In this document: piece by piece, positions 10,697-42,697 of the stretch
How the letters are laid out: each line of letters starts with the position of its first letter
How positions within the stretch are numbered: the stretch's first letter is position 1
Virus record (IMG/VR): IMGVR_UViG_3300043410_001533
Location: 1-54,800 of that record
Length of the DNA stretch: 54,800 nt
Source: a virus
Taxonomy: Duplodnaviria > Caudoviricetes
Direction: 5' to 3' (one strand)
The notes under the pieces: model-generated
The model's input: the letters and a program-made list of their open reading frames with translations, nothing else
Told to the model about the DNA's origin: nothing
Database searches by the model: none
Position numbers and translations under genes: made by a program

Positions 10697-10863
10697 TATT
10701 TCTTCTTAGCTTGCGCTAATGCACCGCCGCCACGCTTTGGTGCGCTTGGTGTCTTCGCGGGTTCTTTCGCACCCAACGATGTACCATCGAGCTTCGCGCC
10801 CATGGCCATTCGCTTGTGGTAAGGTACGTCTTGGCCCATTTGGGCTGAATCATTGGTAGCCAT
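10696..10863 (-). CDS. Small basic protein (55 aa), missed by the ORF track
   Basis: Manual translation MATNDSAQMGQDVPYHKRMAMGAKLDGTSLGAKEPAKTPSAPKRGGGALAQAKKK; AGGAG SD; fills the gap exactly, with a TAATG overlap. Confidence 0.65.
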   Translation of the reverse strand: MATNDSAQMGQDVPYHKRMAMGAKLDGTSLGAKEPAKTPSAPKRGGGALAQAKKK

Positions 10864-10864
10864 G

Positions 10865-13363: not shown

Positions 13364-13397
13364 AGTCTCAGCCTTTAATATGCGATTTTAACACGGC

Positions 13398-18749: not shown

Positions 18750-18779
18750 ATTATAACACAGGTGCCATACCTTTGTCAA
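18750..18779 (-). promoter_or_regulatory. Sigma70-type early promoter
   Basis: TTGACA-N18-TATAAT with GCACCTGTGT spacer motif. Confidence 0.8.
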
Positions 18780-18898
18780 TACCCCAGTCGCCGTTGGGTG
18801 AACGACACCCAGCATCGGGCACACAGCCACCGGCCGGGGCGGGTTTCGACTCCGCCGCCAGCCAGTCGCTCGACTTTGCATTTTGCACAGGTCTGCAT
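18776..18898 (-). CDS. Small zinc-finger protein (40 aa), not in the track
   Basis: Manual translation MQTCAKCKVERLAGGGVETRPGRWLCARCWVSFTQRRLGY, two CxxC pairs; starts 3 nt after the previous stop. Confidence 0.5.
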   Translation of the reverse strand: MQTCAKCKVERLAGGGVETRPGRWLCARCWVSFTQRRLGY

Positions 18899-18901
18899 CA
18901 G

Positions 18902-19117
18902 TCAGCCCCGGAGGTTGTCGTCGATCCAGCGGTCCAAGGCGCGGAAGGCGAGCCAGCGATCGATTTGCTGGCCATCCTTCGTCGAATCGAACCACGCGTC
19001 CACCTTGGGGCCGTCGATTTCGGCGCGGAAGGCGATGCGCTGGCCGTCCAGTAGCATTTCACCCGTGAGGGTGGCCGAGTGCAAGCGCACCCGGACTTCT
19101 TTTTTGGTATTAGGCAT
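18902..19117 (-). CDS. Hypothetical protein
   Basis: 71 aa, coupled to the upstream gene, AAGGA SD. Confidence 0.6.
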   Translation of the reverse strand: MPNTKKEVRVRLHSATLTGEMLLDGQRIAFRAEIDGPKVDAWFDSTKDGQQIDRWLAFRALDRWIDDNLRG

Positions 19118-19604
19118 TTGCGGTTTCCTTCAGTGCTTTGCGGATCATGTTGCCGAGGTTCATGCGTTGCATGCCGGGGTTCAGGTGGGCGAAACGGTCG
19201 CGGAGGCCAGCTTGGGAGATCCCGGTGGCCTTGGACGCTTGGGCGTACACGCCGTCGAGGGTCAGCTTGCGCAAGCCCACTGCCACGGCGTCGCCCTTGT
19301 CGATCGAACGCTTCTTCGTGCCGTCGGCCAACTGGGTGGTGTACGCGGTGTACTGGGGCAGGTAAAGGGGATCTACTTTGCCGTTTTTGCGCTCGTTGAT
19401 GTCCATCTTGGCGCGGGCGGAGGCCTTGGCCTTTTCGATCACGAGCTGGGCAGTCGTGGGAGCGGTGATTGCAGTGTGGCCGGAGAGTGCGCCGTTGCGG
19501 ACCTTAGAAGTCTCGCCATCGACGGAGATCGTGGTCCAGCCGCCGTTCACGGCGACGATTTCAACTTGCTGGCCTGTGGCGGTGATGATTGCTACGTTTG
19601 TCAT
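19110..19604 (-). CDS. Early protein: SH3-like N-terminus plus helical C-terminal domain
   Basis: VEIVAVNGGWTTISVDG; C-terminal SIDKGDAVA..LR...FAHLNPGMQRMNLGNMIR; ATAGAGGACA leader. Confidence 0.7.
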   Translation of the reverse strand: MTNVAIITATGQQVEIVAVNGGWTTISVDGETSKVRNGALSGHTAITAPTTAQLVIEKAKASARAKMDINERKNGKVDPLYLPQYTAYTTQLADGTKKRSIDKGDAVAVGLRKLTLDGVYAQASKATGISQAGLRDRFAHLNPGMQRMNLGNMIRKALKETANA

Positions 19605-19671
19605 GGTGTGTGTCCTCTATAAGATTATCGGGTTGTGGGTCTCTGTATCTTTTTATCGATCCAGAAACTGA

Positions 19672-19701
19672 ATTATAACACGGGTGCAATGGGTTTGTCA
19701 A
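19672..19701 (-). promoter_or_regulatory. Sigma70-type early promoter
   Basis: TTGACA-N18-TATAAT with GCACCCGTGT. Confidence 0.8.
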
Positions 19702-19735
19702 GTACCCCCCTCAAACGACCCTACTGCGAATAGGG

Positions 19736-20008
19736 TCATTCGGCCTTTCCCGAGGGATCGTAAATCGTGTCCACGTACTCTTGCACGCCCTCGGTCCACT
19801 CGGCACCGGGCCAATAGACCACGTAGCCTTTGCCCATCTGGTCCACAGTCGCGCCAGCCTTTGGCAGTCCGTCCATGTCGGAGCCGTGGTCCACGACACA
19901 GGCGACGCAGTCCTGCCCATACATGAAGCGGCCCGAGTAGGGGATGGGTTTTAGGTCCCGATTGGCGATCGCGTCGATCAGGTCCATGGTGGTGTTCAGA
20001 ATCATCAT
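19736..20008 (-). CDS. Hypothetical phage protein (90 aa)
   Basis: Start MMILNTT with AGGAG SD; YSGRFMYG..CV...DQMGKG.VVYWP motif. Confidence 0.65.
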   Translation of the reverse strand: MMILNTTMDLIDAIANRDLKPIPYSGRFMYGQDCVACVVDHGSDMDGLPKAGATVDQMGKGYVVYWPGAEWTEGVQEYVDTIYDPSGKAE

Positions 20009-20226
20009 ACGTAGGCTCCTTTTCTCTTCAGCATCATTTGGCGGTCGCGGATGGCGTCGATTTCGCACCACAGCTTCCGATCGTATTCGGCGTCGCTGTT
20101 CGGGCCGACGGCGAGCATCGCGTCGTAGCAGTCGCGCAGAGCGCGGTCGCACATGTGGGCGTCGTACTCAGCGAATTTGCGACGGAAAACCGCCGCGAGG
20201 TCAGTGTAGGAGATCGTACGGTTCAT
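20005..20226 (-). CDS. Hypothetical protein (73 aa)
   Basis: Start MNRTISY with GGAGG SD; TAATG coupling; KLWCEIDAIRDR. Confidence 0.6.
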   Translation of the reverse strand: MNRTISYTDLAAVFRRKFAEYDAHMCDRALRDCYDAMLAVGPNSDAEYDRKLWCEIDAIRDRQMMLKRKGAYV

Positions 20227-20480
20227 TATTTCACCTCCGCATTGCCGGACATTTCGCCGTCCATGATGTCGAACAGCACGGCCTTCGCACGATTGAGCAT
20301 TTGGCGGGCGGCCTCGGTCTGCCCCATGGCCATCAGCTCCTGCGCGTCGGACATCAGGCCCGCGACGACCATGTTGCCGCCGGTGTAGCGGTAGGTGATC
20401 GACTCGCGAATGGAGGCCTTGAACTTCTCGATGTCGCAACCGTACATTGACTGCTCGTTGCTGGTGATTGATGTCTGCAT
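20226..20480 (-). CDS. Hypothetical early protein
   Basis: 84 aa after a promoter and the ATAGAGGACA leader; GLMSDAQELMAMG..E.ARQ.LNRAK. Confidence 0.7.
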   Translation of the reverse strand: MQTSITSNEQSMYGCDIEKFKASIRESITYRYTGGNMVVAGLMSDAQELMAMGQTEAARQMLNRAKAVLFDIMDGEMSGNAEVK

Positions 20481-20514
20481 TGTGTTGTCCTCTATGTGTT
20501 GTTAAAAAGGTTAT

Positions 20515-20544
20515 ATTATAACACAGGTGCTACAATCCTGTCAA
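20515..20544 (-). promoter_or_regulatory. Sigma70-type early promoter
   Basis: TTGACA-N18-TATAAT with GCACCTGTGT. Confidence 0.8.
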
Positions 20545-21253
20545 GTATTCCATGAAGCGAGTCCACGCCACCATTGCAGAAATGGAGCTTCGGGGCCTTT
20601 CGGTATTTGTCCTGCACGGCGTGATTGATGAACTTCGTCATTAGGACCGTGTGCGCACGGGTGAGCTTGTCGTAGGTGACGGCTTGCTCCGGCGTGAAAA
20701 AGCTCAGGTCCAAGCGATCGTGGTATTTGTTCGCTACCGCGTGAGCTTGGGCGGGTAGTAGTCCGATTACCAGCACGCCGGGACGGGCGTAGCCAGTGGG
20801 GTGCGGAATCGGCTGGGGGTTGTGCTTCGGACGATTGACCACGATCTGCGGGGCGTTCTCCAGCATTTGCGTCGACATTTTATCTGCAACCCGGGCGGCC
20901 ACGGACTCGGCGACAACGTCCAGCAGTAGCTCGAGTATATCCGCGAGCCTCGTCTTGGGGGTCTCCTTGCGTTCGGGCGCGGGGGTCGGGGCTAGTATAG
21001 GGGCAGGGGCTTCGACGGCCTTCGGAGGCGTCTTCTTCGACTCCTGCTGAGCCTTTTGCCGGGCGACTTCGATACGGTCTTTGTAGTTGAACACGCGCTG
21101 GTCGGTGACCTTGATCCAGCGGCTGGCATTGAGCACAGTCTGTGCTTCGCGCAATGCCTCTTTGCGGGTAAGATTCGGGCGTTGGCGAAAGACTTGCTCC
21201 ATACGGGCGAAGATCGCGCCTTTTTCTATGTGTGACCAGACGATTCGAGCCAT
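20516..21253 (-). CDS. Hypothetical protein with C-terminal DUF2325-like alpha/beta domain
   Basis: Start MARIVWS after ATAGAGGA; C-terminal VLVIGL...VLMTKFINH...FCNGGVDSL. Confidence 0.65.
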   Translation of the reverse strand: MARIVWSHIEKGAIFARMEQVFRQRPNLTRKEALREAQTVLNASRWIKVTDQRVFNYKDRIEVARQKAQQESKKTPPKAVEAPAPILAPTPAPERKETPKTRLADILELLLDVVAESVAARVADKMSTQMLENAPQIVVNRPKHNPQPIPHPTGYARPGVLVIGLLPAQAHAVANKYHDRLDLSFFTPEQAVTYDKLTRAHTVLMTKFINHAVQDKYRKAPKLHFCNGGVDSLHGILDRIVAPVL

Positions 21254-21271
21254 GATTTCCTCTATGTGTTT

Positions 21272-21297
21272 AAAAAGCGGGGGCCGAAGCCCCCTTG
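21272..21297 (-). terminator. Rho-independent terminator
   Basis: GGGGGC-TTCG-GCCCCC followed by GCTTTTT on the minus strand. Confidence 0.75.
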
Positions 21298-21326
21298 AAA
21301 ATGGCAACTGCAGAAGCCATACCCCC

Positions 21327-21354
21327 ATTATACCAGCGCGAGAGCCTGTGTCAA
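21327..21354 (-). promoter_or_regulatory. Sigma70-type promoter overlapping the DUF932 gene stop
   Basis: TTGACA-N16-TATAAT with TG extension. Confidence 0.6.
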
Positions 21355-22308
21355 TGCATCGCGTTTCAGGCGGGCACCGGCACCGAACCAAGCGGACTGG
21401 AGACGGGTGTCGCGCGATGCGGCTTTGCGCTCGTGATCGGCGAAGCGGGTGACGGCGTTCAGCAGTCCCCACGCGGTGCCCTGTGCAGTCTTGGCTCGCT
21501 GGCCCACGCCGTCGAGGTAGATCTTAGTCACCAGCTCGATCATCGGACGCTTGGCTTCGACGTCGATCGACTCGGCCTCGTCGCCGTAGAACACGTCGAG
21601 GAAGTAGCGGGTCGCCTCTTCTTTCGACACTTTGCGCTTGGACAGCGTGGTCGCGTTCGTCTTGAACTGGCTCCAAGTGTCCGCACACAAGCCCAACTCG
21701 GCCTTGAACTTCTCGGCGTTGAATCGGGTGCTGTGTGGCACGCGGATTTGGCCGGTCTTGTTCGCTACGGCCAGCGACAGCGTATTGTTGCACACGACAC
21801 GGGTGGTCGTGAACTGCGCAGTGTTCGACATTGAGCCGTCGCAAGACGTCGCCAGCAGTAGGTAGGGCAGGACCACGTCACCGCCGCCCACGTCGAACGA
21901 ATCCTCGGCCTTGGCCAATGCCCAGTAGGTGGAGCCGTTGCGCAGGACGCCAGCAGTCTCCATCTTGAAGTCGCCGCCTTCGGTCAGGTCGCGAAAGAAC
22001 TCCATCACGGCGCGGGGTTGGGTGATAAAGTAATTGCTCGACATGACGGACAGGGGTTCGCCGGTATCGGAGCGGTACAGTGCCCAGCGTGCGGGTACGG
22101 TCTGCATACGGACCGGATTGTCCTCCTCGTCGCGCACCTCGTAGGCGATCGCGCCCTTTTTGACCTCCCAGTCGAGGCCCGCTTCGCGAGTCCAGACGTC
22201 GAGGGGGGCGTCGGGGGTGAGCTTCTGTCCGAGTCCGTGCCAAGGGGTCTCGCCCGCGTATGCCATTGATGCTTTGCCAGCCGCATTGAAGTTAAGTTCG
22301 TGTGCCAT
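21328..22308 (-). CDS. DUF932-family protein
   Basis: MAYAGETPWHGLG, AGLDWEV, YRSDTG.PLSV.S..Y...QP, METAG.LR.G..WALA, YLLLATSCDGS, RVVCNNTL, GTAWGLLNAVT. Confidence 0.88.
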   Translation of the reverse strand: MAHELNFNAAGKASMAYAGETPWHGLGQKLTPDAPLDVWTREAGLDWEVKKGAIAYEVRDEEDNPVRMQTVPARWALYRSDTGEPLSVMSSNYFITQPRAVMEFFRDLTEGGDFKMETAGVLRNGSTYWALAKAEDSFDVGGGDVVLPYLLLATSCDGSMSNTAQFTTTRVVCNNTLSLAVANKTGQIRVPHSTRFNAEKFKAELGLCADTWSQFKTNATTLSKRKVSKEEATRYFLDVFYGDEAESIDVEAKRPMIELVTKIYLDGVGQRAKTAQGTAWGLLNAVTRFADHERKAASRDTRLQSAWFGAGARLKRDALTQALALV

Positions 22309-22344
22309 GATGTCTAGTGTCCTCTATGTGTTGATGAAGAATGA

Positions 22345-22373
22345 ATTATACCACAGGTGCTACAATCTGTCAA
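22345..22373 (-). promoter_or_regulatory. Sigma70-type early promoter
   Basis: TTGACA-N17-TATAAT with GCACCTGTGG. Confidence 0.85.
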
Positions 22374-22380
22374 GTATCGT

Positions 22381-22563
22381 CTAATCACCGAGTACTTCCC
22401 AAGTGTCGCCTTTGTGACCACACTCGTCGCACTGGTAGCCGTACTTGGCCCAAAAGATCTCGTGTCGAGGGTCCGATTTGGACTCCAAGAGCTTGACGCC
22501 CATACCCGCGTTGCAGATCGGGCAGGTATCTAGGCCCTCGTCCTCGACTTCGTCGTCATGCAT
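22381..22563 (-). CDS. Small zinc-ribbon protein
   Basis: CPIC...YQCDECG; AGGAG SD. Confidence 0.65.
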   Translation of the reverse strand: MHDDEVEDEGLDTCPICNAGMGVKLLESKSDPRHEIFWAKYGYQCDECGHKGDTWEVLGD

Positions 22564-22774
22564 AGTGTACTCCTACGATTAACGCCGCAAGCAGTGCGAC
22601 ACTGAGGGTCCAAAGGACCGCATCCCAAAAGACCTCGGCCGCTGGGCGGTACGTTGGCTCGAGTAGCGAGAGCTGGAGCCTTTCCATGTCCGCGCTTGGC
22701 TCCCACGTCTGCCGGGGCTGGTACATGCACCCGATTTGAATGCCGGTCTTGGTGGTGTAAGGGGTGATCTTCAT
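22556..22774 (-). CDS. Small membrane protein (72 aa)
   Basis: Start MKITPYTTKTGIQIG (ATGA overlap); C-terminal TM helix. Confidence 0.65.
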   Translation of the reverse strand: MKITPYTTKTGIQIGCMYQPRQTWEPSADMERLQLSLLEPTYRPAAEVFWDAVLWTLSVALLAALIVGVHYA

Positions 22775-23067
22775 TTTACGATCTCCATTTGGCGGATGTT
22801 CATCACCTCGACTTCGCCGGTGTGCTCCTCGACCCACTCGGCCGACAGGTGTGCGCGGACGGCGTCCATGTCCAGCTGTGGGCGGGTCGTGAACTTGATC
22901 TCGATCTGGTGCTGGTCGCCACGGTAGATCGCGTTGCCGCCCTTGCGGAAGATCTCTTTCAGGTACTTCTCGCGGGCAGTCAGTGCCTTGAGCTGGTCAC
23001 GCACGCTGGCGAGTTCGTCCACCATGTCAGTGGTGATTGCGACGGGCTTAGTGGTAGTCTTTGCCAT
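22771..23067 (-). CDS. Hypothetical early protein (98 aa)
   Basis: Start MAKTTTK after ATAGAGGACA; VDELASVRDQLKAL coiled coil. Confidence 0.7.
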   Translation of the reverse strand: MAKTTTKPVAITTDMVDELASVRDQLKALTAREKYLKEIFRKGGNAIYRGDQHQIEIKFTTRPQLDMDAVRAHLSAEWVEEHTGEVEVMNIRQMEIVK

Positions 23068-23136
23068 GATTGTGTGTCCTCTATAATGTCTATCGGTTGA
23101 GTGGTTACTGGATCGTCTTACCAACCCAGAATCTGT

Positions 23137-23166
23137 ATTATAACACAGGTGGGGTAGCCTTGTCAA
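23137..23166 (-). promoter_or_regulatory. Sigma70-type early promoter
   Basis: TTGACA-N18-TATAAT with CCACCTGTGT. Confidence 0.8.
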
Positions 23167-23443
23167 TACCCCCCTTCGGTATTCGTGTCGCCACGATGGT
23201 CGCATACCCCGCGATGTCCACCCATGAGTCGAGGTGGTTGGGGTCGCCGTTCAAAATGCGGGAGGCCTTGCACGCGATCATGTCGAGCGATTCACGCTGG
23301 TGGTACTCCAGCCGTTCCCAGCCGGGGCACTCGCGAAAGAGATCCTTCAGGGTCTGTGCGATCTCGGCTTGAATCGTGTAGTCGCCGTACGACTCGCCAC
23401 GCTCCGCGACCACCCCGTCTATGTTAAGAGATGACTGCGGCAT
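23138..23443 (-). CDS. DUF6378-like protein
   Basis: ERGESYGDY...ESLDMIACKASRILNGDP..DSWVDIAGYA. Confidence 0.75.
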   Translation of the reverse strand: MPQSSLNIDGVVAERGESYGDYTIQAEIAQTLKDLFRECPGWERLEYHQRESLDMIACKASRILNGDPNHLDSWVDIAGYATIVATRIPKGGIDKATPPVL

Positions 23444-24692
23444 GAGCGAGTCCTCCTTTTTTATATCGGCTCTTGTACGAGCCGGGAGGAGCTTCTTTCA
23501 CCAGACGCTCCACGATGTCTTCGGGGTCGTAGCCTTTAAGCATTCCGCGAATCAGAGCTTCGGTCGTGGCCTGTCGTCCAAGCGTCGTGGGGCCGAATGC
23601 CCCTGCTAGGTCCTGTGGGTTCGCCATAACTTGAGGCTCGGCGAGATTCTTCAGCAAGACGTCCTCGTAGGGGCGCACTTGGCTGATTCGCAGTGGCGAC
23701 GCCGTACCGGTGCCGGGGCCGTAGGCTCCCGCCATTTGCGCTTCGCGCGTCATCAGTGTGCCGATCGTTTCGTCAGGTGTCATGTTCAGGAAATTCGGGG
23801 TGCGCAAATCCTGCGCCGCGTCCATCAGTTCGTCGGTCTTCTTATTCGTTACTAGATTCGGACCACCGAATAACTTCTTCAGGTAGTAGTCTTCCTTGTG
23901 GCTGGCTTGAACAGGCATCGAGAAAAGCTGGCCGGACATCCCGGGCGAGTACGCCACCTCTTCGACTGGGGCGATATATCCGAGGTTCCCGTGTCCGAGC
24001 GAATGGGACGCCACATTGCCGAGTCGCCGCACTTGGTTTACATCCGTCAAATGCGACGCGAAGTTACCATGCCCCTGTGCACGCATCATGTCGTACGCCA
24101 GTGCGTACAGCTCTTTGCCTTTCGCGGGCAGACTCTTCCACCACGCGGAATCGGGGTCCTTCAGACCGTACGTTCCGGGCTTGACGTCCATGGCGTAGAG
24201 TTCAGTCATCGTCGGGTGAGGCATATCCATACCGAACTGTGCCCGAGCCGCATTCCACTGGGGATCGCGCATCGCCGCTTCAGCCATGTAACGCTCCAGC
24301 TCGAAACCGAGCGGGGTCTTGTCTTTGTCAAGCCTTGAGGGTGACCACGTGATGTTCGGATGAATACCCCGTGCATGTGCCTCGTCTATGTCCTTAGGTG
24401 CTTTACTCTCGGGGTCGAGTCGGATTTTGCCGGTAGAGGGCATATAGCCACGCTGTACCGCGCCTTCGTTCGTCGAGGACATCGTCGCACGAATCGGCTC
24501 GCCACTGGCGGTCTTGCCAAACATCCCGGCCTTGTTGTACTGCTCGAGCACTTCAGCGGGGAGCATGCCCGCCTGTGCTTGACGCATACCCAGCGGGACG
24601 CGCTGTGCGCCGGGGAGAGTGGCAATGGCGCGGTGGCCCCTGCCTACTCCCTCCATTAGGTCAGCGAACGATAGGTTCTTTACTGGTGGCAT
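23424..24692 (-). CDS. Paralog B: putative GNAT-like protein with C-terminal YKKGG tag
   Basis: Collinear similarity to 24997..26244 (PGAQ, SGEP.RA, ESK.PK, LY.L.YDM.RA, LT.VN..RRL.NV.SH..GHG, REAQ.AGAYGP, AFGP.TLGR); GNAT call is inference. Confidence 0.6.
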   Translation of the reverse strand: MPPVKNLSFADLMEGVGRGHRAIATLPGAQRVPLGMRQAQAGMLPAEVLEQYNKAGMFGKTASGEPIRATMSSTNEGAVQRGYMPSTGKIRLDPESKAPKDIDEAHARGIHPNITWSPSRLDKDKTPLGFELERYMAEAAMRDPQWNAARAQFGMDMPHPTMTELYAMDVKPGTYGLKDPDSAWWKSLPAKGKELYALAYDMMRAQGHGNFASHLTDVNQVRRLGNVASHSLGHGNLGYIAPVEEVAYSPGMSGQLFSMPVQASHKEDYYLKKLFGGPNLVTNKKTDELMDAAQDLRTPNFLNMTPDETIGTLMTREAQMAGAYGPGTGTASPLRISQVRPYEDVLLKNLAEPQVMANPQDLAGAFGPTTLGRQATTEALIRGMLKGYDPEDIVERLVKEAPPGSYKSRYKKGGLAHAAVIS

Positions 24693-24934
24693 TCTATCCC
24701 CTCAAGGTGATCATATGCGTCGCGGAATTCGTCGACTACGTAGTCGTAAGAATCGGAGGCGTTCTCACGCACCATCTCTTCCCACTCTAAGTTGTGGTCG
24801 CAGTATTCCGACTGGTCTTCGCACATTTCGGCCCGACGCAGTCCGGCGTAGGTCGCATCGTCAATACCCAATGCGGCAAGCGCGGCGCGAGCGCGGGTGA
24901 GCAATTCGCGAGATTCGGGTTTCATCGTAATCAT
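24680..24934 (-). CDS. Hypothetical acidic protein
   Basis: 84 aa after a promoter and the ATAGAGGAC leader. Confidence 0.65.
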   Translation of the reverse strand: MITMKPESRELLTRARAALAALGIDDATYAGLRRAEMCEDQSEYCDHNLEWEEMVRENASDSYDYVVDEFRDAYDHLEGIECHQ

Positions 24935-24978
24935 GGTAGTAGTCCTCTATAGTCTATGTGTGGTGGAAGGGAAGTCAT

Positions 24979-25007
24979 ATTATAACACACGTGGGACTAG
25001 GCGTCAA
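24979..25007 (-). promoter_or_regulatory. Sigma70-type promoter
   Basis: TTGACG-N17-TATAAT with CCACGTGTGT. Confidence 0.75.
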
Positions 25008-26244
25008 GTGCGGTGGCCAGCCCGCCTTTTGCGTATCGACCCTTAATCGCTTCCAGCGGCACACCCTTGAACAGTTCATACGAGATCTCTTCGGGTGTCT
25101 GCCCACGGAGCATTCGCGCCACGGTCTCCTCAGTGGTGAGTGCTCGTCCAAGAGTGTTGGGTCCAAATGCGCGTAAAATGCTGTCTCTACCCTGCTCACT
25201 GGCTTTTTTCACCGTCGGCACAGACAAAGCCCGGAGGTCTTTCATGTCGAAAGGCCCAAGTCCTTGAGTCGGTGGTCCATAAGCCCCCGCAAGTTGTGCC
25301 TCGCGCAAAAGCATATAGCCCGCCATCTCGTCATCGGTGAGACCAGCAAATGCCCGAGGTCCCATTCCTTGGAGCTTCGTGCCGAACTTCGAAGGCAACA
25401 AATCGCGAAGGTAACTGTCTTCAAGATTTATGTCATCGACCGGCGACTTAAAAGATTGAGAGGACCACGGGGTCAATCCCCGGACTTTTTCTTCGTTCAA
25501 CGGCGAAATCGTGCCGAAGTCACCATGGCCGAAATAATGTGACAACACATTCCGAAGTCGGCGCGGGTGATTCACTTCAGTCAGTGTTCCTGCGGTTACG
25601 CCAAATTCACCACGAGGTGCACGCGACATATCGTACCCAAGCTGGTAGAGGTTAGTACCGGGGGATTTAAATCCTTTCCACCCGGGGCCACTGCCGCCTG
25701 CATCCATCGCGTTAATTTGGAACATTTGAGCGGATTTGGAACCAATACCGGTCTCACGCCCAGCCCGCACGTCGGCCTTATACTTTTCGAAGTTACGAGC
25801 ATCAATCGGACCGAGCATATTTTCAATCCGATTGAATAATGGGCCGGTCCGGTTGTAATCGTACGTGTCGTAGTCGTAGTCTTTCTTAAAGCGCATGGTC
25901 GGATTGCCATCGCCTTCCCGGTATGCTTTGGGCGTCTTGCTTTCCCCATGTAGAACTATATCGAATTTATCATTCGTATTTTCTTGGATCGGCACATTCT
26001 TACTTACCGGGCCGTCAACGTGGGGACTCATGACTGATGCCCGCACAGGTTCGCCGCTCGGCAATGTGCCAAATATCCCCTTGTCGCTCGCGATCTTGGC
26101 CATTTCGCCGTGCGTCTTGCCGCGCAAAAGATCTCGAATTTCGAACGCTTGAGCACCGGGTTTGGCCGCCGCCGCTTTGTGGACGTCGGCCAGCCCCGTA
26201 AGCAGGTCTTTAAACGTCAGTCCCTTCGGTATGGGCGGAGCCAT
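24997..26244 (-). CDS. Paralog A: putative GNAT-like protein with C-terminal YAKGG tag
   Basis: Start MAPPIPK (GAGG SD) lies inside the end of the HDAC gene; aligns with paralog B from its N-terminus; GNAT call is inference. Confidence 0.6.
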   Translation of the reverse strand: MAPPIPKGLTFKDLLTGLADVHKAAAAKPGAQAFEIRDLLRGKTHGEMAKIASDKGIFGTLPSGEPVRASVMSPHVDGPVSKNVPIQENTNDKFDIVLHGESKTPKAYREGDGNPTMRFKKDYDYDTYDYNRTGPLFNRIENMLGPIDARNFEKYKADVRAGRETGIGSKSAQMFQINAMDAGGSGPGWKGFKSPGTNLYQLGYDMSRAPRGEFGVTAGTLTEVNHPRRLRNVLSHYFGHGDFGTISPLNEEKVRGLTPWSSQSFKSPVDDINLEDSYLRDLLPSKFGTKLQGMGPRAFAGLTDDEMAGYMLLREAQLAGAYGPPTQGLGPFDMKDLRALSVPTVKKASEQGRDSILRAFGPNTLGRALTTEETVARMLRGQTPEEISYELFKGVPLEAIKGRYAKGGLATALDA

Positions 26245-27079
26245 GGTATACCTCGTCGCTGATCGCCAGCGTTTGCAGGTGGATGTCGATCGTGTCTTGC
26301 ATATTCTTCGCGTATCCACCGGCTAGATTCCACACCAATGGGACCCCGGCTTCGCGTGCGGCAGTGAAGATACCACGATCGCGGGCCGCGAGACCCTCCT
26401 TGGACAGGTACCCGACGCCGTAGGGGTCTTGGTCCCAAGCGTCAGCACCGGCCTGATACAGTATTATACCAGCTTTAGAGTGTCGAATCAATCCCTTGGC
26501 GAACGACTGCCACATCGCGGCATTCCAGTCGGACTGGATCGGGCGTCCTATGTCGGGGCGGGTGACGTGCGTAACGCGACCCCGAATCATCAGGTGGTCC
26601 AGTATATCCTCGGTCCCGTCGCCGTGGTGACCATCTCCGTCTATAATCAGCACATTCTTCGCGCCGTTGCGCAGTGCCTTCATCGCGGTGATCATCAGCC
26701 CGTTGAACGTGCAGTACCCGTACCCATCCTCGAAGTGGGCGTGGTGGAAGCCCTGAGTCGCGGAGCACGCCACGGCACCACGCACGCCACCTTGCTGGAG
26801 CACGTGCTTAGCCGCCGCCCAGTGGCCAGCGTTCGAGTAGAGGAGCGAGTTCGTGATCTCCGGATCGATCGTGTTGAACCCGTTGGGGGCGACATTCTTC
26901 AGGATGCCACGGACATACTCGCGGTGGTGCGCCTCCTCGAAGTCTACCGCCGTGTATGGCTCGAAGTTCGAGCGCACGTCGCCCTCCAACTGGTGGATGA
27001 ACTCGGGAATCTTCCTAACGGAGATAAAGTCGTAGGAGACCTCTTGGGCCGGGTGGTAGAATACGGGGGTGTTAGTCAT
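26210..27079 (-). CDS. Histone-deacetylase-family (Zn-dependent amidohydrolase) protein
   Basis: GFHHA catalytic His pair, GYCTFN, VLIIDGDGHHGDGT Zn ligands, YQAGADAWDQDP, LAGGY with catalytic Tyr. Confidence 0.9.
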   Translation of the reverse strand: MTNTPVFYHPAQEVSYDFISVRKIPEFIHQLEGDVRSNFEPYTAVDFEEAHHREYVRGILKNVAPNGFNTIDPEITNSLLYSNAGHWAAAKHVLQQGGVRGAVACSATQGFHHAHFEDGYGYCTFNGLMITAMKALRNGAKNVLIIDGDGHHGDGTEDILDHLMIRGRVTHVTRPDIGRPIQSDWNAAMWQSFAKGLIRHSKAGIILYQAGADAWDQDPYGVGYLSKEGLAARDRGIFTAAREAGVPLVWNLAGGYAKNMQDTIDIHLQTLAISDEVYHGSAHTEGTDV

Positions 27080-27090
27080 GGTAATGTCCT

Positions 27091-27333
27091 CTATAGTTTA
27101 TTGGTAGGGGACGAATTATACCACACCTGCGATAGATTGTCAACCCCCTTCTTTTTCTTGTCCTTCGGCGGCTCGGGCAGTTCAGCACGCTCGATGTCGC
27201 GCTCGTCGGCCTTTTCGCGAGTCGTGAAGCGAAATTCGCAGTGATTGCAAATCCGGCGACGGCGGGTGATGCCGTTAGCGTTTTGGTAGGTCGTCGTGAC
27301 CCGGGTGTCTTCCCCACACTTGATGCAGTTCAT
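27091..27333 (-). CDS. NrdR-N-terminal-like zinc ribbon protein
   Basis: MNCIKCG..TRV..T......RRRRIC.HC..RFTTRE; ATGA overlap with the datZ stop. Confidence 0.7.
   Translation of the reverse strand: MNCIKCGEDTRVTTTYQNANGITRRRRICNHCEFRFTTREKADERDIERAELPEPPKDKKKKGVDNLSQVWYNSSPTNKL
27115..27143 (-). promoter_or_regulatory. Sigma70-type promoter for the HDAC-paralog A unit
   Basis: TTGACA-N17-TATAAT, then the ATAGAGGACA leader at 27085-27094. Confidence 0.8.
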
Positions 27334-27893
27334 AACCATCCCCCTGTAATTCCTATATCGTTGCACACGCGACGCACCGACTCGCGGGGCGAGAGCTTGG
27401 GATGCAAACGCTCGGCCTCAGTCACCATGTCGGACAGAATCGCCCGGAGGCCGTCCAACACTTGCTTAGCGTGCGCTCCGACTCCGTTGTCCTGCAGGAA
27501 AAAGATCGCCTCGATCTGGTCCGCAAGCTTCACGATCGTCTCTACTTCTGTGCCGCGCACTTGTCGGTAAGCCGACATGGTCTCGGCGTCCACTCGGTCC
27601 TCAGCCTTTTCCACGATACCCTTACCCCCTACGGCTTCTAGGTCTCGCTTGAAAGGCGTTGGCATATCTCCGGTGCGCACCTCGATGATGTCGTGCGCGA
27701 GTGCCCACTGCAGGAGCTTCAATTTGCCCGATTCCTGCAACAGGCCATTCCAGCGCATTGCGGCCGCAAGGGATCCCGCGATCACCGCTACTGCGAAAGA
27801 GTGCTCGGCCAGCGTCTGCTCGCGTGACGTCTGCACGATGTGCCAGCGACGAACGTGGCAAGCGCGAAGCTGTTCGTATACTGTTAAACTCAT
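27330..27893 (-). CDS. datZ: HD-domain dATP triphosphohydrolase
   Basis: VRRWHIV..QTLAEHS, ALAHDIIEVRTGDMPTPFK, IVKLAD.IEA; YfbR-like HD fold next to purZ. Confidence 0.85.
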   Translation of the reverse strand: MSLTVYEQLRACHVRRWHIVQTSREQTLAEHSFAVAVIAGSLAAAMRWNGLLQESGKLKLLQWALAHDIIEVRTGDMPTPFKRDLEAVGGKGIVEKAEDRVDAETMSAYRQVRGTEVETIVKLADQIEAIFFLQDNGVGAHAKQVLDGLRAILSDMVTEAERLHPKLSPRESVRRVCNDIGITGGWL

Positions 27894-27982
27894 AAGGGTG
27901 CGTCCTCGTAATTCTCTATGTTAAATGGTAGCCGGTAGAGCGGCTGGTGTTCAGGCAGTTTAGACGGGAATGGCCACGTCAC
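27890..27982 (-). CDS. Small protein (30 aa)
   Basis: GTGA-coupled start, MTWPFPSKLPEHQPLYRLPFNIENYEDAPL; ATGA-coupled to datZ. Confidence 0.45.
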   Translation of the reverse strand: MTWPFPSKLPEHQPLYRLPFNIENYEDAPL

Positions 27983-28194
27983 GACTTGACGGCTTGCAGT
28001 CTGCGAATCTGGTCCGCTATCTGGTCGCCAGTCAGCTCGTCGAAGAGCTGGAATTCGTACTGCCGGGCCACGTGTTCGAGTGCTCCGTTCCATATCTTTT
28101 TCACTGCCTCCCTATTTTCATTATCTTCGGACCCGAGCACGTTACCAAACGTCTGCTCGTACCACTGATCGAATGCTTCATTTCTCTTCGACAT
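27979..28194 (-). CDS. Hypothetical protein
   Basis: 71 aa, AAGGA SD, overlaps the mazZ end. Confidence 0.6.
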   Translation of the reverse strand: MSKRNEAFDQWYEQTFGNVLGSEDNENREAVKKIWNGALEHVARQYEFQLFDELTGDQIADQIRRLQAVKS

Positions 28195-28681
28195 GGCGCA
28201 TTATCCTTGTGTTAACGTCCACTTCCCACTGACGTTGCTCATTGATATCCATCTTGTCTTCTACCGCCTTATGTACGTCTATGCCGTTTTTGTGCGCGAC
28301 GTCCAGCAGTAGAATCATGATATCACCCATTTCGAGAGCGGCTTTTGGGTTACGAGCGTACTCGCCCACCTCCTCGTAGAGCTTGAGTAGGATGTCCGCA
28401 GTGGTACGCGCCGGAAAACGCGAGTCTGCCCACTTGGTAATTCTATCCTGAAGCTGTCGGATGTCGGCCCCGCCGCGCTTTTTGTACGCGTTGACGGCGC
28501 GGACCGCAAGGTCGGCATTTTTATCGCAGTTCCCCATAACCCCACGCAAGTGGTGACGGACTTCGAAAGACGCGACGGTTGCGCCTTGCGCATCGACAAT
28601 TTCGGCCGCCCGCTCGGGGTGGACTGCCCATGGAAGTTCATTCGCTTCATCCGTGTGTACTGTTGATTCTACCTGTAGCAT
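28178..28681 (-). CDS. mazZ: MazG/DUF550-like (d)NTP pyrophosphohydrolase with extra N-terminal domain
   Basis: WADSRFP.RT..ILLKLYEEVGEY...EMGDIMILLLD...KMDINEQRQW; start MLQVES after GGAGAG; adjacent to purZ. Confidence 0.8.
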   Translation of the reverse strand: MLQVESTVHTDEANELPWAVHPERAAEIVDAQGATVASFEVRHHLRGVMGNCDKNADLAVRAVNAYKKRGGADIRQLQDRITKWADSRFPARTTADILLKLYEEVGEYARNPKAALEMGDIMILLLDVAHKNGIDVHKAVEDKMDINEQRQWEVDVNTRIMRHVEEK

Positions 28682-29774
28682 ATACTCTCCAAAGTTCAAG
28701 AATTCGCGCCAGCCGAGCATCTGAGCTGTACTGAGGCATTGAGTAAACATCTTTATATTCCGGTCCAAGTCCGATCCAACGCACGAATGTGTTCGGCGTA
28801 CGCTCGATTGACTCCACGATATCCCGTACCTCGTCCTCGGACCTGCAGTAATTGACGAAGTTCAGGAAGATCTCACGGGCACCATTATACTCGATCGCTT
28901 CGCCGATCTGCTTGCGGCTGAACGTAAAAATACGGCGCGGGAGCTTGGTCACAGTGGTCAGCTCGGTCTTTTGCCCGATCTCCTCGAACGTGATCTCCAG
29001 CTGGTCGTCGTAGCACGGACCGGAGTACCCGACTTGCGTCCCGTGTGTGTCGAACCGGTTGGCCACGCGGATCGGGTAAGTGCGGCAAGTGCCGACGACG
29101 GTGATGTCGGGGAGGTCCATGACTTGTGGTAGCAGATCGTGCGGAATGCCGCAATCGGCGAGGATTTGCCACAGGCTCACATCACGCGAAGTGGTGTAGG
29201 GGTAGAAGCCGTGGTACATCGACAGCCCGTACCCTTGTGCACCTTCTACCAGCACGTGCTCGGCTTCACGCAGTGCGGTGCGATACGCAGACACTGTGAC
29301 TACGTATTTCGCCAGCTCCGCACAATTGGCGGCTATATTCAGATCGTCCGGATCGCGCCGAATTCGCTGAATCATCGCGGCACCCACGCCCTTTTTAGTC
29401 GAACCGATCTTGGTCATTGGCCCGGCTTCCTCTTCGATGTGACGATCGGTCACTACGGCGGCGTGCGGGTGGATCGCGATTCGCACATTCTTGAGCAAGT
29501 CCGCGCACGCGGCGATCTCTTCGAGCAGTTGCTGGGGGTTTATGAGTGAGCCGGGGCCAAGTAGCACCTGCTTGAGCATGGGCGACACGATGCTATTCGC
29601 AAGGTGCGTATGGATGAACTTGCGTCCAGTCTTGCTGATGTACGTGTGCCCCGCATTGGGTGCCCACGCGGTGATTACCGTATCCGGTGCTTCGTCCTCC
29701 GCGATCTTGCCTACGATCAGCCCCTTGCCGGTGCTTCCATATTGCAAATCGACTACGACTTTAATCTTGTCCAT
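28647..29774 (-). CDS. purZ: N6-succino-2-amino-2'-deoxyadenylate synthase (PurA paralog for Z base)
   Basis: DLQYGSTGKG (Ser where PurA has Asp in GDEGKG), PNAGHT, IGSTKKG, EGAQG, YPYTTSRD, PIRV, ELTTVTK..RR, FLNFVNY (NF.N instead of PurA TKLD); start MDKIK with GAGG SD. Confidence 0.95.
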   Translation of the reverse strand: MDKIKVVVDLQYGSTGKGLIVGKIAEDEAPDTVITAWAPNAGHTYISKTGRKFIHTHLANSIVSPMLKQVLLGPGSLINPQQLLEEIAACADLLKNVRIAIHPHAAVVTDRHIEEEAGPMTKIGSTKKGVGAAMIQRIRRDPDDLNIAANCAELAKYVVTVSAYRTALREAEHVLVEGAQGYGLSMYHGFYPYTTSRDVSLWQILADCGIPHDLLPQVMDLPDITVVGTCRTYPIRVANRFDTHGTQVGYSGPCYDDQLEITFEEIGQKTELTTVTKLPRRIFTFSRKQIGEAIEYNGAREIFLNFVNYCRSEDEVRDIVESIERTPNTFVRWIGLGPEYKDVYSMPQYSSDARLARILELWRVYATGRINSTHG

Positions 29775-29779
29775 TACCT

Positions 29780-31615
29780 CTATCCTTTCGCTTCGTACCA
29801 GTCTTCGCCTATACCCCAGTCGCACGTGATCGGAACACGCAGATGAATGGGGCATTCTACACCATCAAAGGTCGTGTAGATTCGTGCTACCTCTTTCGCT
29901 TTGTCAAGTGAGTCATTATCGAGCGATATGCCCACCTCGTCGTGCACCGTCAGCAGTAGTCGCCCACAGCCTTCGGCGGTTAAATACTTGTGAAGCTCGA
30001 TGAGCTTTTGCTTCATGCAGTCCGCGCTGGTGGCTTGGTAAATCAGCCCCGACGCCTTGTGCACGAATTGGCCGCCCGGAAAGCGAAGCCTCCGGCCCAT
30101 CACCGAATGCACCGATCCGCGCTCTTTGGCAATGTTACTCGCCTTCTGTGCGGTGTTGCGCATCCCGGGGTTGGCGGTGTGGTACTTCTCGAACAGTGCC
30201 ATCGCCTCAGGTCCAGCCTTAAGGAACACATTGCCGTTGGGTCCCACCTCTTCGGTATATGGCAGTCCACACTCTTGCGCTAGTCGCCCCGACCCCATAT
30301 TGAACGCCAGCCCGAGGTTAATCGCCTTCGAAGACGGGCCACCCGCGTACTGAGCGTTCCGGGGTATGCCGGTGAGATCAGACACCAACTGGTGAAAGTC
30401 CAAATCGGGGTTCGCACGATAGGCCTCAAGAATCGCGGGAACCTGACCGTAATGGTTAGCCACTCGGAATTCAAATTGTGACCAATCCAGCCCCATCCAT
30501 TTAGCACCCACATCAGCCTTGAAAATCGGCCGGATAAGCGATTTGATGGCAACGTCTCTAGATGGTATCTGCTGGAGAGCGGGATTGGTAACTGATAGAC
30601 GTCCAGTGCCAGTGCCCGCCTCAGAGTCGTTTTTAGTCTGATTATAATTGCAGTGAATGATGCCATCGTGTTCATGCCCTAAGATGTGACCCGATAGGAA
30701 TGTATCCCGGGTCTTGAGCATTTTGCGCAAGTCGAGAATCATCTTTGCGGCGGGGTGCTTCATGCGACGTAGGCAGTCGGCGTTGATCGAGGCCTTGCCA
30801 CCGTCGGTCTTGTCCGCTTTTGTGCCATCAATCAGGTACCACTCATTATCGTCCCCGAGTGTCGGCTTGAATAGGTCCGCGATCGATCCGGAAGGGTTCG
30901 GGTTGACCTCGAAACCGGCCAAGCTATTCAGATCCCTCTGCATATTGTCAACGCGCACGGTGAGGTCACGAACGGCCTTCTCAGCCAGCCCTACATCCAC
31001 CCGCACACCCTGCTCTTCCATGTCCATGATGACTGGCATCAAGTCGCGCTCGAGCTTGTGCACTTGGGCGAGATTCTGCGTCCGCATCTGCTCCTCTTGC
31101 CACTGGTACAGTGCCAGCGTCACCACAGCGTCTTGAATCGCGTATTTCGACACGAGACTGATGGGGGCGCGAGAAATGTTCGGCATCTGTGCGTTGCGAG
31201 TCGGGCGACCACCGAAGAGGCGCGACATCTCCTCGTAGATCTCCTCGTCCTTCTTCATCCCGCAGTATTTACGAGCGAGGAAGTCGAGGGCGTACGTGGG
31301 TTCGTGCTCCGAAATCAGAGCGGCACGGGTCATCGTGCAGTCGATTCGGTCCAGTGGTAGTGCGACTCCGGCTTCGCGCAGGAAGTGCAAGTCGAACTTG
31401 AGATTATGGCCAACCCACAGCCCGACGCGCTTCTCTTTGATAAGATCGTTGAGCCATGCGACGATGTAGGGGTCGGACCGGACGTCCCAGTAGCCCGAGT
31501 ACCCCGGGAATGCGATGGAAATGCCGAACAGCTTGTCGGCCCACCACTTCAATCCCGTGGTCTCGGTGTCTATGACCACGACAGGTTCGTAGTCAATGCG
31601 TGGGAGTTCGGTCAT
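29780..31615 (-). CDS. dpoZ: Family A DNA polymerase, DpoZ-like (3'-5' exonuclease plus polymerase, no 5' nuclease)
   Basis: DTETTG, HNLKFD, YAIQD exonuclease motifs; TGRLS..NPALQQIP; DWSQFEFR; motif B KAINLGLAFNMG with Phe in place of the usual Tyr; VHDE; directly upstream of purZ. Confidence 0.88.
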   Translation of the reverse strand: MTELPRIDYEPVVVIDTETTGLKWWADKLFGISIAFPGYSGYWDVRSDPYIVAWLNDLIKEKRVGLWVGHNLKFDLHFLREAGVALPLDRIDCTMTRAALISEHEPTYALDFLARKYCGMKKDEEIYEEMSRLFGGRPTRNAQMPNISRAPISLVSKYAIQDAVVTLALYQWQEEQMRTQNLAQVHKLERDLMPVIMDMEEQGVRVDVGLAEKAVRDLTVRVDNMQRDLNSLAGFEVNPNPSGSIADLFKPTLGDDNEWYLIDGTKADKTDGGKASINADCLRRMKHPAAKMILDLRKMLKTRDTFLSGHILGHEHDGIIHCNYNQTKNDSEAGTGTGRLSVTNPALQQIPSRDVAIKSLIRPIFKADVGAKWMGLDWSQFEFRVANHYGQVPAILEAYRANPDLDFHQLVSDLTGIPRNAQYAGGPSSKAINLGLAFNMGSGRLAQECGLPYTEEVGPNGNVFLKAGPEAMALFEKYHTANPGMRNTAQKASNIAKERGSVHSVMGRRLRFPGGQFVHKASGLIYQATSADCMKQKLIELHKYLTAEGCGRLLLTVHDEVGISLDNDSLDKAKEVARIYTTFDGVECPIHLRVPITCDWGIGEDWYEAKG

Positions 31616-31878
31616 CAGAATGGGATGTCGTCGAATTCAACGCCGGAATCACTCGCTGGTCGGCCAGATGCCGCAGTTCCGCCCTCTTTGCGATTGATCT
31701 TGATGGAGAAGTATTTCTTGCCTTCCATCTTGCCACCGGCCTTGCCTTCATTAACCCACGCGGAAAGCCAGTAGTCCACGCCCTCTACGTTGATCGAGCC
31801 AGTGAATTCCGGATGCTTGTCCGTCTTGCGATTCTCAGCGCGAGCCATAATGCCCGAATTGGTGTTATCGTATGCCAT
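31615..31878 (-). CDS. Small SSB-like protein (DUF736-like)
   Basis: K.DKHPEFTGSINVEG..YWLSAW...KYFSIKI and an acidic DDIPF tail. Confidence 0.75.
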   Translation of the reverse strand: MAYDNTNSGIMARAENRKTDKHPEFTGSINVEGVDYWLSAWVNEGKAGGKMEGKKYFSIKINRKEGGTAASGRPASDSGVEFDDIPF

Positions 31879-31915
31879 CTTGAATGTCCTCTATCTGTTG
31901 GTTACTGAAGTGGCT

Positions 31916-31944
31916 ATTATACCACCCGCGATACTGTCTGTCAA
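31916..31944 (-). promoter_or_regulatory. Sigma70-type promoter driving the SSB-dpoZ-purZ-mazZ-datZ operon
   Basis: TTGACA-N17-TATAAT; ATAGAGGACA leader at 31885-31894. Confidence 0.8.
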
Positions 31945-42685: not shown

Positions 42686-42697
42686 TGTGGACCCCTA

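Follow-up and report, generated by a model that had tools for sequence, protein, structure and literature searches.

Zinc-dependent deacylases are well known in cells; the subject of the present analysis is one that is encoded by a phage. Its gene lies on the minus strand at 26210..27079 of IMG/VR virus record IMGVR_UViG_3300043410_001533 (Duplodnaviria; Caudoviricetes), the whole of which, 54,800 nucleotides (54.8 kb) of linear DNA estimated by CheckV to be 98% complete, constitutes the stretch that was analyzed and is referred to hereafter as “the window”. The main finding is that an uncultured clade of freshwater phages, whose genomes are predicted to contain 2-aminoadenine (Z), retains a gene for a zinc-dependent deacylase under purifying selection, equipped with a strong promoter of its own and linked to a partner gene, u422. 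The gene is real, selected and apparently catalytically complete, far beyond what chance would produce; its active site is intact, its affinity is with class IV of the histone deacetylase (HDAC) family, and it is conserved in the clade, translationally coupled to its partner and dispensable for Z-phages. That its product is an active class IV-type zinc deacylase is predicted with high confidence, and the explanation that we favor for its presence, namely an early-expressed protein acyl-lysine deacylase serving host takeover or counter-defence, is one for and against which the scales stand about level.

Catalytic site and class of the deacylase

26210..27079, minus strand: predicted zinc-dependent deacylase, compact class IV/HDAC11-like, 289 amino acids (aa)

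The Pfam family PF00850 (Hist_deacetyl) matches this open reading frame (ORF) with 96.6 bits (E 2.2e-27, cut-off 27.9) and, in the whole-genome scan, with 68.4 + 27 bits, and the protein has the alpha/beta deacetylase fold; no family was found for it in PHROGs, NCBIfam and PADLOC. The translation displays TQGFHHAHF, which contains the dyad H112/H113, GYGYCTF, IIDGDGHHGDG (with D147, D149 and H151), QAGADAWDQDP (with D213) and LAGGYAK (with Y256). Conservation was read from two alignments, A1, comprising 31 close relatives (48–92% identity), and A2, comprising 38 representatives of the family (31–51% identity). Invariant in both are the His-His dyad, D147 and the catalytic tyrosine Y256, the Asp-His-Asp zinc ligands D149, H151 and D213, and the GFHH, CTFN and AGGY motifs around the active site. 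With its five motifs present, the Pfam match well above cut-off and the catalytic residues invariant, the protein is indeed what a preliminary description of this DNA had taken it to be, an HDAC-family enzyme with a full catalytic set. The ratio of nonsynonymous to synonymous substitution rates (dN/dS) lies between 0.116 and 0.240 in 11 of 11 pairs (the window gene against eight relatives, plus three pairs among the relatives), and a Shine–Dalgarno-like GAGGA is located 7 nt ahead of the ATG. A four-residue insert, VRGA (residues 99–102; window 26785–26796), occupies the loop before the strand leading to the His-His dyad, where the confidence of the structural model is locally lower; the idea that it might be a trait of the window alone was dropped, VRGA or VRGG being common to 11 related rows and missing in 26.

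Among solved structures the best relative by single sequence is the Vibrio cholerae enzyme HdaH (VcHdaH; 9gkv/9gky), with an E value of 7e-20. When the A2 profile is used, full-length matches are obtained only with VcHdaH (5.4e-42), with Leptospira interrogans HDAC11 (9gz5, 4e-35) and with 9rje (1.5e-32), class I and class II chains being matched in their N-terminal half only, at ~1e-16 to 1e-20 per domain. Likewise, structure comparison separates the class IV/cluster 5 relatives from all other classes by a gap of 3–6 units of the Z score; propanil hydrolase is also among the structural matches.

In the available text of PMC11532494 (Graf et al. 2024), VcHdaH is assigned to cluster 5b and identified as a lysine deacylase selective for decanoyl groups (de-decanoylase), and the enzymes of cluster 5 are said to have a small-residue motif instead of “RPP” before the His-His dyad and an xGGY motif that opens a foot pocket, the class IV active-site tunnel being described as fitted to acyl-lysine. 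Both features are found in the phage protein, the G(F/Y)HH motif with small residues as ATQGFHH and the xGGY motif as AGGY, and residues G110–H113 and A253–Y256 are invariant in A1 and A2. Within class IV, the accessible part of PMC13325672 distinguishes a clade B, with an aromatic gatekeeper and a preference for C10–C18 acyl groups, from a clade A with a Thr/Ser gatekeeper and an Arg-Glu pair that shuts the pocket, whose activity on peptides is undetectable and whose substrates are perhaps not proteins. The phage enzyme carries the clade B signature: F111 is an aromatic gatekeeper and the Arg-Glu pair is absent, the two sites at which this pair is found in clade A being represented by S78 and S82, which align with Ser94 and Ala98 of L. 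interrogans, and neither Arg at 78 nor Glu at 82 being found in any of the 31 A1 sequences. These positions were mapped by hand, with an offset of 3 between the chain index and the numbering of the paper that was verified on Phe122, Ser94 and Ala98.

As judged from its sequence, therefore, the phage protein belongs to the class IV type, in compact form, and its pocket bears clade-B-like signatures, the clade being assigned from these signatures because the phylogenetic tree presented below holds the compact subfamily without reference class IV sequences. Since its nearest relatives appear to be HDAC11-like enzymes rather than acetylpolyamine amidohydrolases (APAHs) or AcuC, both the label “deacetylase” and the idea of a polyamine substrate lose weight. 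Thus, of the designation originally given to the protein, the HDAC-family part stands, whereas the word “deacetylase” is less apt, the closest enzymes being class IV fatty-acyl lysine deacylases; “deacylase” is the name that fits better.

Promoter, transcription unit and the coupled partner

27115..27143, minus strand: consensus sigma-70 promoter, TTGACA-17-TGgTATAAT (12/12), inside the 3′ end of the zinc-ribbon gene
23424..24692, minus strand: u422, conserved partner, 422 aa, no known family

The deacylase has its own transcription unit. The -10 element of its promoter ends 35 nt ahead of the ATG, and a matching promoter, 29–53 nt upstream, has been kept by every one of the 69 relatives whose sequence extends 160 nt or more in that direction; 58 of these promoters are perfect, and all of them match the consensus at 10 or more of the 12 positions and have the TG extension. 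Between window positions 5049 and 38627 there are 11 perfect TTGACA-N16-18-TATAAT promoters, as compared with 0.01 expected by chance, 10 of them on the coding (minus) strand, 8 within 18750–31944 and most of them TG-extended. The region between the packaging and the replication modules amounts to a string of units of one or two genes, each with a consensus host-type promoter.

Two scans of IMG/VR yielded 73 in-clade loci in which the deacylase is 49–94% identical to that of the window; many of the contigs are near-duplicates, so that the locus counts overstate independence. In all 73 a u422-type gene directly follows the deacylase, starting no more than 40 nt from the end of the match, and deacylase and partner overlap or abut at the partner's start, an arrangement indicative of translational coupling. 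A further set of 65 loci, many from contigs already present in the deacylase scans, was anchored on PurZ, a gene of the Z cluster; 58 of these have at least 4.5 kb of sequence after PurZ, and of these 45 have the deacylase, always accompanied by u422, and 13 lack it. In the two in-clade loci without either gene (2/2), both are missing together.

The two genes also diverge together. Over 31 loci the mean pairwise p-distance of u422 is 0.62 and that of the deacylase 0.42, to be compared with the DNA polymerase DpoZ (0.18), the helicase (0.23), PurZ (0.33) and DatZ (0.40). The partial correlation of the pairwise distances of deacylase and u422, given DpoZ, is 0.57, as opposed to 0.12 for PurZ, -0.11 for DatZ and -0.08 for the helicase; insofar as pairwise distances are not independent, these coefficients carry no p-value. 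Prediction of a complex between deacylase and u422 from A1 and A3 (the alignment of the partner family) gave scores of 0.32, 0.51 and 0.00 in separate runs and 0.33 in one control, and was used for neither side of the argument.

The partner, ~380–440 aa long across the related loci, belongs to a family confined to this phage clade within the limits of a search of 5.8 billion proteins: the profile retrieved only 66 clusters, all with E ≤3e-91, and no distant relatives. No family was found for u422 in Pfam, PHROGs, NCBIfam and PADLOC, no match by tblastn in 50,697 phage records, nothing usable in the ESM Atlas, and no match of the A3 profile among PDB sequences. Its AlphaFold2 model is of good quality (predicted local distance difference test 89.8, predicted template modeling score 0.90); Foldseek finds nothing for it in the PDB (best E 0.5), and its best match in BFVD is a “large polyvalent protein associated domain” protein, with an E value of only 0.013. 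The domain LPD37 (PF18853) appears below threshold (13.5–15.8 bits, cut-off 27) in 4 of the 33 partner-family proteins scanned, and a PF18853 scan of the window gave no match.

A GRYxxGG motif normally ends the partner protein. In five long forms (L064, L065, L067, L069 and L077) it is followed by C-terminal extensions of no assigned family, and one metagenomic homologue of 643 aa, P0309, bears a C-terminal ART-PolyVal ADP-ribosyltransferase domain (46.3 bits, cut-off 31.2); its 93%-identical IMG/VR relative (L026/L220) is unfused, and the ART-PolyVal part was found in none of the fetched loci. The partner thus has the architecture in which effector ends vary from member to member behind a module that is conserved, as portrayed in the available text of Iyer et al. 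2017 (PMC5512222) for polyvalent proteins deployed early in invasion. The candidate substrate offered by an acyl-lysine in the C-terminal GRYxKGGL tail of u422 was dropped, the lysines there not being conserved.

In the window the order of the genes is deacylase, u440, a second promoter-like site, u84 and u422:

24997..26244, minus strand: u440, 415 aa, divergent paralogue of the partner family (36% identity), member of alignment A3
24979..25007, minus strand: second promoter-like site, TTGACG-17-TG-TATAAT (11/12), ahead of u84 and u422
24680..24934, minus strand: u84, small acidic ORF inside a window-specific insert, overlapping the start of u422 by 13 nt

The ATG of u440, at 26244, overlaps the 3′ end of the deacylase by 35 nt. 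A stretch of 1.54 kb (24701–26241), comprising u440, the second promoter and u84, is missing in the three relatives with which the window was compared (L003, L013 and L021); since this insert carries u440, the phage of the window has two divergent paralogues of the partner. Within the 73 loci u440 has no relative more than 37% identical to it, and u84 gave no tblastn match in the related loci; a single weak PADLOC match of u84 to Cas13d (E 3e-4) was treated as due to chance.

Genome setting, distribution and origin

Besides the deacylase, the window encodes terminase, portal, capsid and tail proteins (PHROGs); no tRNA genes were found in it. Its being an almost complete virus record with these genes confirms that the enzyme is phage-encoded, as the preliminary description had it. 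To that account the Z cluster and the coupled partner add a new context. The genes neighboring the module are the following:

29780..31615, minus strand: DpoZ-like family A DNA polymerase (PF00476, PF01612)
28647..29855, minus strand: PurZ (NF038379 350.4 bits, cut-off 300; phrog_1211 E 2e-86)
28178..28768, minus strand: MazZ-like dATP/dGTP pyrophosphohydrolase (PF04447; phrog_801)
27330..27893, minus strand: DatZ-like HD dATP triphosphohydrolase (phrog_7076 E 3e-30; PF12917)
27091..27366, minus strand: NrdR-type protein consisting of the zinc ribbon only, 91 aa, between DatZ and the deacylase (PF22811 34.2 bits)
21328..22308, minus strand: DUF932/TIGR03299 protein, ~4 kb downstream of the deacylase (PF06067; TIGR03299)

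The polymerase is 46–49% identical to those of Acinetobacter phage SH-Ab 15497, Salmonella phage PMBT28 and phages related to these, one of the matching records being annotated as DpoZ. With genes of the DpoZ, PurZ, MazZ and DatZ types side by side, that is, all the members of a Z module, the phage is predicted to have a 2-aminoadenine genome. The zinc-ribbon protein has no ATP-cone, is kept across the clade and is absent in 11 loci of more distant PurZ phages; it may regulate genes of nucleotide metabolism. A protein of the same DUF932 family is encoded 0.3–1.4 kb upstream of a distant deacylase homologue on two lambdoid-type contigs (L075, 7587–8582; L078, 8636–9694). Elsewhere in the window, the primase (37009–38571) has an AEP-TOTE domain, of the archaeo-eukaryotic primase type found in conflict systems, and neither a 1,524-aa protein (43669–48243) nor its neighbors (39015–43672) belong to a Pfam family; among the latter only 39015–41069 matches a PHROG, phrog_5880, to which no function is assigned.

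Wherever the contig reaches far enough, the order DpoZ, PurZ, MazZ, DatZ, zinc-ribbon protein, deacylase is maintained; PurZ is present in 26 of the first 34 loci, the remaining 8 contigs ending within 2.1 kb upstream. The deacylase is not, on the other hand, a general component of Z clusters. Of the 13 PurZ-anchored loci (out of 58) that lack it, 11 belong to more distant PurZ phages, whose DpoZ, where present, is 39–53% identical and which have no zinc-ribbon gene, and two, L210 (a 56-kb contig with 82% identity in DpoZ) and L187, are in-clade and have kept the whole Z cluster. These two represent natural “knock-outs” for comparison; in L210 the slot (9500–15095) is filled by small uncharacterized ORFs, one of them a DUF6378. 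Because the deacylase–u422 pair is missing from the two in-clade contigs and from the 11 distant PurZ loci, and because homologues of the deacylase occur in non-Z phages and in bacteria, the pair is probably an accessory module unrelated to the synthesis of the Z base.

The preliminary description had called such enzymes uncommon in phages. This holds for deposited, cultured phages, since by tblastn only 6 of 50,697 phage records match the deacylase, with 24–35% identity, the matching phages being Rhodococcus phage E3 (gp202) and four huge uncultured phages (LR7565xx) only, and no cultured Z-phage in these records giving a match; in metagenomic viral contigs the family is not very rare, IMG/VR containing 369 stretches of it. 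Eight other viral contigs with homologues 34–41% identical to the deacylase derive from different phages, including lambdoid-type phages (NinB, NinG, RecT, YqaJ), others that encode a ligase and CobS/CobT-like AAA+VWA pairs, and large phages with a sheath. Nothing PurZ-like is matched within 10 kb in seven of the eight; L082, the remaining one, encodes an adenylosuccinate synthetase (PF00709 425.7 bits) that is only 28% identical to the PurZ of the window and from its sequence looks like an ordinary PurA. Neither the main text, as available, of bioRxiv 10.1101/2025.10.22.683976, a study whose 116 dZ-associated Pfam domains may well include PF00850, nor that of PMC12884076 was found to describe a deacylase in the clusters of Z-phages.

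Among 1.84 billion representative proteins the deacylase has 4,531 relatives at E ≤1e-3, 219 of them at ≤1e-30, most being 270–300 residues long. One genome per prokaryote species (185,579 species) yielded at least 580 deacylase stretches, beside which neither a Z cluster nor u422 nor DUF932 was found; the best of them is 53% identical, so that the nearly identical host gene that, according to the preliminary description, would have spoken for a recent neutral capture did not turn up. A tree of the compact subfamily was built by a quick search and rooted only at the midpoint, with 133 rows remaining after removal of identical rows (154 to 134), of one protein longer than 340 aa and of loci with an incomplete ORF. 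In this tree 52 Z-phage rows and 6 genome-assembly rows form one group (SH-like approximate likelihood ratio test 100) on a long stem (0.97), with the other 68 genome rows and 7 rows from other phages on the opposite side. The six genome rows (Polaromonas, other Comamonadaceae, Rubrivivax and one labeled Thermoflexus) branch from within the phage diversity, so that transfer looks to have gone from phage to cell, provided that the long stem holds the root. Burkholderiales hosts are hinted at by these nested copies, and the tree suggests that the gene was present in the ancestor of this clade of ~55-kb Z-phages. The phage-type copies on Comamonadaceae and Sphaerotilaceae contigs of metagenome-assembled genomes (L084–L089), 46–53% identical, have as neighbors MerR-like and VWA genes in divergent orientation, as well as a gene for a 229-aa uncharacterized protein; an hhalign comparison of A3 with this 229-aa protein gave nothing usable.

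Possible functions and comparison with known systems

In the explanation that we prefer, host RNA polymerase would transcribe the deacylase, the first gene of a short unit, from its dedicated sigma-70 promoter, and the second gene, translationally coupled to it, would supply a fast-evolving, effector-like protein of the u422 family. The deacylase would strip acyl groups, perhaps longer than acetyl by analogy with its nearest characterized relatives, from the side chains of protein lysines in infected cells, the targets being either phage proteins acylated by the host or an acylated host factor; hydrolysis would take place early in infection, alongside the u422 effector or in support of it. A flavor of conflict is lent to the module by the fact that deacylase and u422 both evolve faster than the replication genes and that one u422 homologue is fused to ART-PolyVal. 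Furthermore, the accessible part of a 2026 preprint reports host-imposed lysine acetylation of phage proteins of DNA and RNA metabolism and speculates on phage deacetylases; acetylation of replication proteins would be in keeping with the position of the gene at the replication module. In open-access papers and bioRxiv, phrase searches for phage deacetylases returned only this preprint and a paper on a polysaccharide deacetylase, and no functional study of a zinc-dependent deacylase in a phage was found.

The contexts of the bacterial homologues were sampled as 59 ORFs around 11 loci and 118 immediate neighbors in 64 further loci. The families that recur belong to the mobile or conflict kind: WYL/WCX regulators and subtilases (5 loci each), VWA proteins and metallophosphoesterases (4 each), PLD-like nucleases and DUF2779 (3 each), ADP-ribosylglycohydrolase, Fic and FtsZ-like proteins (2 each), and the R subunit of a type I restriction system (1). 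Some of these loci (L094, L096, L135, L147, L088, L112 and others) may represent uncharacterized conflict or stress modules around a deacylase.

Several considerations weigh against a role in host takeover or counter-defence through protein acyl-lysine. The bacterial neighborhoods are heterogeneous, about half of the 118 neighboring ORFs having no Pfam family, so that the enrichment in “conflict” genes is an impression without statistical control; moreover, the PADLOC and anti-defence families match neither the deacylase nor u422. No test carried out here identified a substrate, and membership of class IV is in itself no proof of a protein substrate, since clade A shows no activity on peptides; the chain length is deduced from hand-mapped positions and by analogy with enzymes only 22–25% identical. 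The early timing is deduced solely from the type and position of the promoter; no RNA data set is listed as matching window 23400–27400, the one sample that shares more than half of its sequence words being probably the source. Exchange as one cassette, as opposed to co-adaptation, could give rise to the correlation of distances between the two genes.

The linkage of the two genes could also arise if they formed a writer–eraser or two-step pathway, u422 being a divergent acyltransferase of the GNAT type and the deacylase removing or trimming the acyl group that it transfers to a non-protein substrate such as a small amine, a nucleotide or a DNA base, for instance at the additional amino group of 2-aminoadenine. 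Such a pathway is compatible with the translational coupling, the joint presence and absence and the correlated divergence of the two genes, and with the fact that the module adjoins the Z cluster in every member of the clade that has it; in a VIA search with the u422 model, which is independent of Foldseek and whose alignments span model residues 44–255, almost all of the 50 matches listed are, by title, GNAT-type acyl-CoA N-acyltransferases, and in A3 a conserved GxG...Y before a helix, followed by an Asn/Arg-rich helix, resembles by eye the CoA-binding motifs of GNATs. HDAC-fold enzymes, in turn, can hydrolyze aryl amides, as exemplified by the propanil hydrolase found among the structural matches, propanil being an anilide, and the Mom protein of phage Mu is a GNAT-fold enzyme that acylates adenine N6. 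However, a scan of the window with PF00583 gave no match, even at E 10, no acetyltransferase family of Pfam is found in 32 members of the partner family at E ≤10, and neither the A3 profile nor Foldseek finds anything in the PDB; furthermore, two in-clade phages retain the whole Z cluster without the pair, and homologues of the deacylase exist in other phages and in bacteria without an adjoining u422. We consider this pathway rather unlikely, and its specific version in which the pair writes and erases acyl groups on nucleic acid, e.g., on the exocyclic amino groups of 2-aminoadenine or on nucleotide precursors, very unlikely, the latter having lost ground because two members of the clade and all other Z lineages lack the pair, although within the clade it is always found at the Z cluster. 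If true, it would mean a second layer of DNA modification, or a control of the nucleotide pool, in this clade of Z-phages.

Strict co-occurrence, coupling and correlated divergence would equally be expected if the deacylase acted on its own partner, activating, restraining or neutralizing the u422 effector as an antidote or maturation factor, and u422 does look like the scaffold of an effector, with its GRYxxGG domain end, the variable extensions of the five long forms and the ART-PolyVal domain of P0309; the conserved C-terminal motif, however, contains no invariant lysine, some members having RR or AR, and homologues of the deacylase are widespread without u422, which makes this action on the partner a doubtful proposition. 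No better placed is an acetylpolyamine amidohydrolase that would free spermidine or putrescine from the N-acetylated pools of the host for DNA packaging or translation: APAHs with an HDAC fold exist, and active ones are encoded by giant viruses (available text of PMC9992855), yet the virosphere survey published in PNAS, as far as the same text extends, found homologues of APAH to be confined to Imitervirales and absent from phages, and such an activity would leave the partner gene and the conflict-type contexts unexplained. Reversal of GNAT toxins by deacetylation of N-acetyl-aminoacyl-tRNA, the counter-defence idea of the preliminary description, has the general logic of counter-defence in its favor; the available text of PMC11532494 and PMC13325672 describes no HDAC-fold enzyme with such an activity, the first of these describes the class IV tunnel as fitted to acyl-lysine, with a foot pocket, and no contextual link to toxin–antitoxin genes was found in the neighborhoods examined, so that this activity is highly improbable. 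Conjectural, too, is a further role put forward in that description, the activation of acetyl-regulated enzymes. Finally, a recently captured and selectively neutral host gene is close to refuted: six bacterial contigs of metagenome-assembled genomes (Comamonadaceae, Sphaerotilaceae and one labeled Thermoflexus) do carry members of the phage-type clade, but these copies are only 46–53% identical and are nested in the phage diversity, whereas 73 in-clade loci have the deacylase, its promoter being conserved and the gene under purifying selection.

Should the protein acyl-lysine deacylase that we favor indeed erase lysine acylation imposed by the host, or attack an acylated host factor, it would represent a new type of phage counter-measure and an entry point into the almost unexplored field of protein acylation in the conflict between phage and host.

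Compared with the Z clusters of S-2L, phiVC8 and SH-Ab 15497-type phages, the neighbors of the deacylase in the window are bona fide members of such clusters, whereas no counterpart of the deacylase itself was found by tblastn in the cultured Z-phages. The “putative histone deacetylase” gp202 of phage E3 and the ORFs of the LR7565xx phages are similar in size to the deacylase of the window and likewise uncharacterized; all, however, are only 24–35% identical to it, and gp202 is surrounded by small hypothetical genes, not far from one for a tail fibre, with neither PurZ nor u422. A conceptual model of a writer and an eraser is provided by AcuA and AcuC of Bacillus subtilis, the GNAT writer and the class I HDAC eraser, respectively, of acetyl-CoA synthetase; with this system the phage module shares the pairing of an HDAC-fold enzyme with a (possibly) GNAT-fold protein, but AcuC-type enzymes belong to cluster 2 (class I-like), unlike the phage enzyme, which is assigned to class IV, u422 is not demonstrably a GNAT, and the context contains no acetyl-CoA synthetase.

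The closest parallels are found within class IV. VcHdaH (PDB 9GKY/9GKV) and the phage enzyme have in common the catalytic residues, the lack of the “RPP” motif and a small single domain; on the other hand, they are only 24–25% identical, the phage enzyme is ~30 residues shorter, with trimmed loops after the zinc-binding motif, and its TQGFHH and AGGY correspond to SGGYHH and GGGY in VcHdaH, a chromosomal bacterial enzyme of demonstrated de-decanoylase activity, the phage enzyme being known from its sequence. With the HDAC11 enzymes of clade B (L. interrogans 9GZ5 and human HDAC11), to which it is 19–22% identical, the phage enzyme shares the gatekeeper Phe before the His-His dyad and small residues at both sites that close the foot pocket in clade A, and its AGGY is identical to that of the L. 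interrogans enzyme; the acidic rim residues of clade B are not evident at the aligned phage positions, where the alignment of the loops is uncertain. Compact class IV enzymes of ~285 residues would, moreover, be a tractable model for the fatty-acid deacylases of the HDAC11 type.

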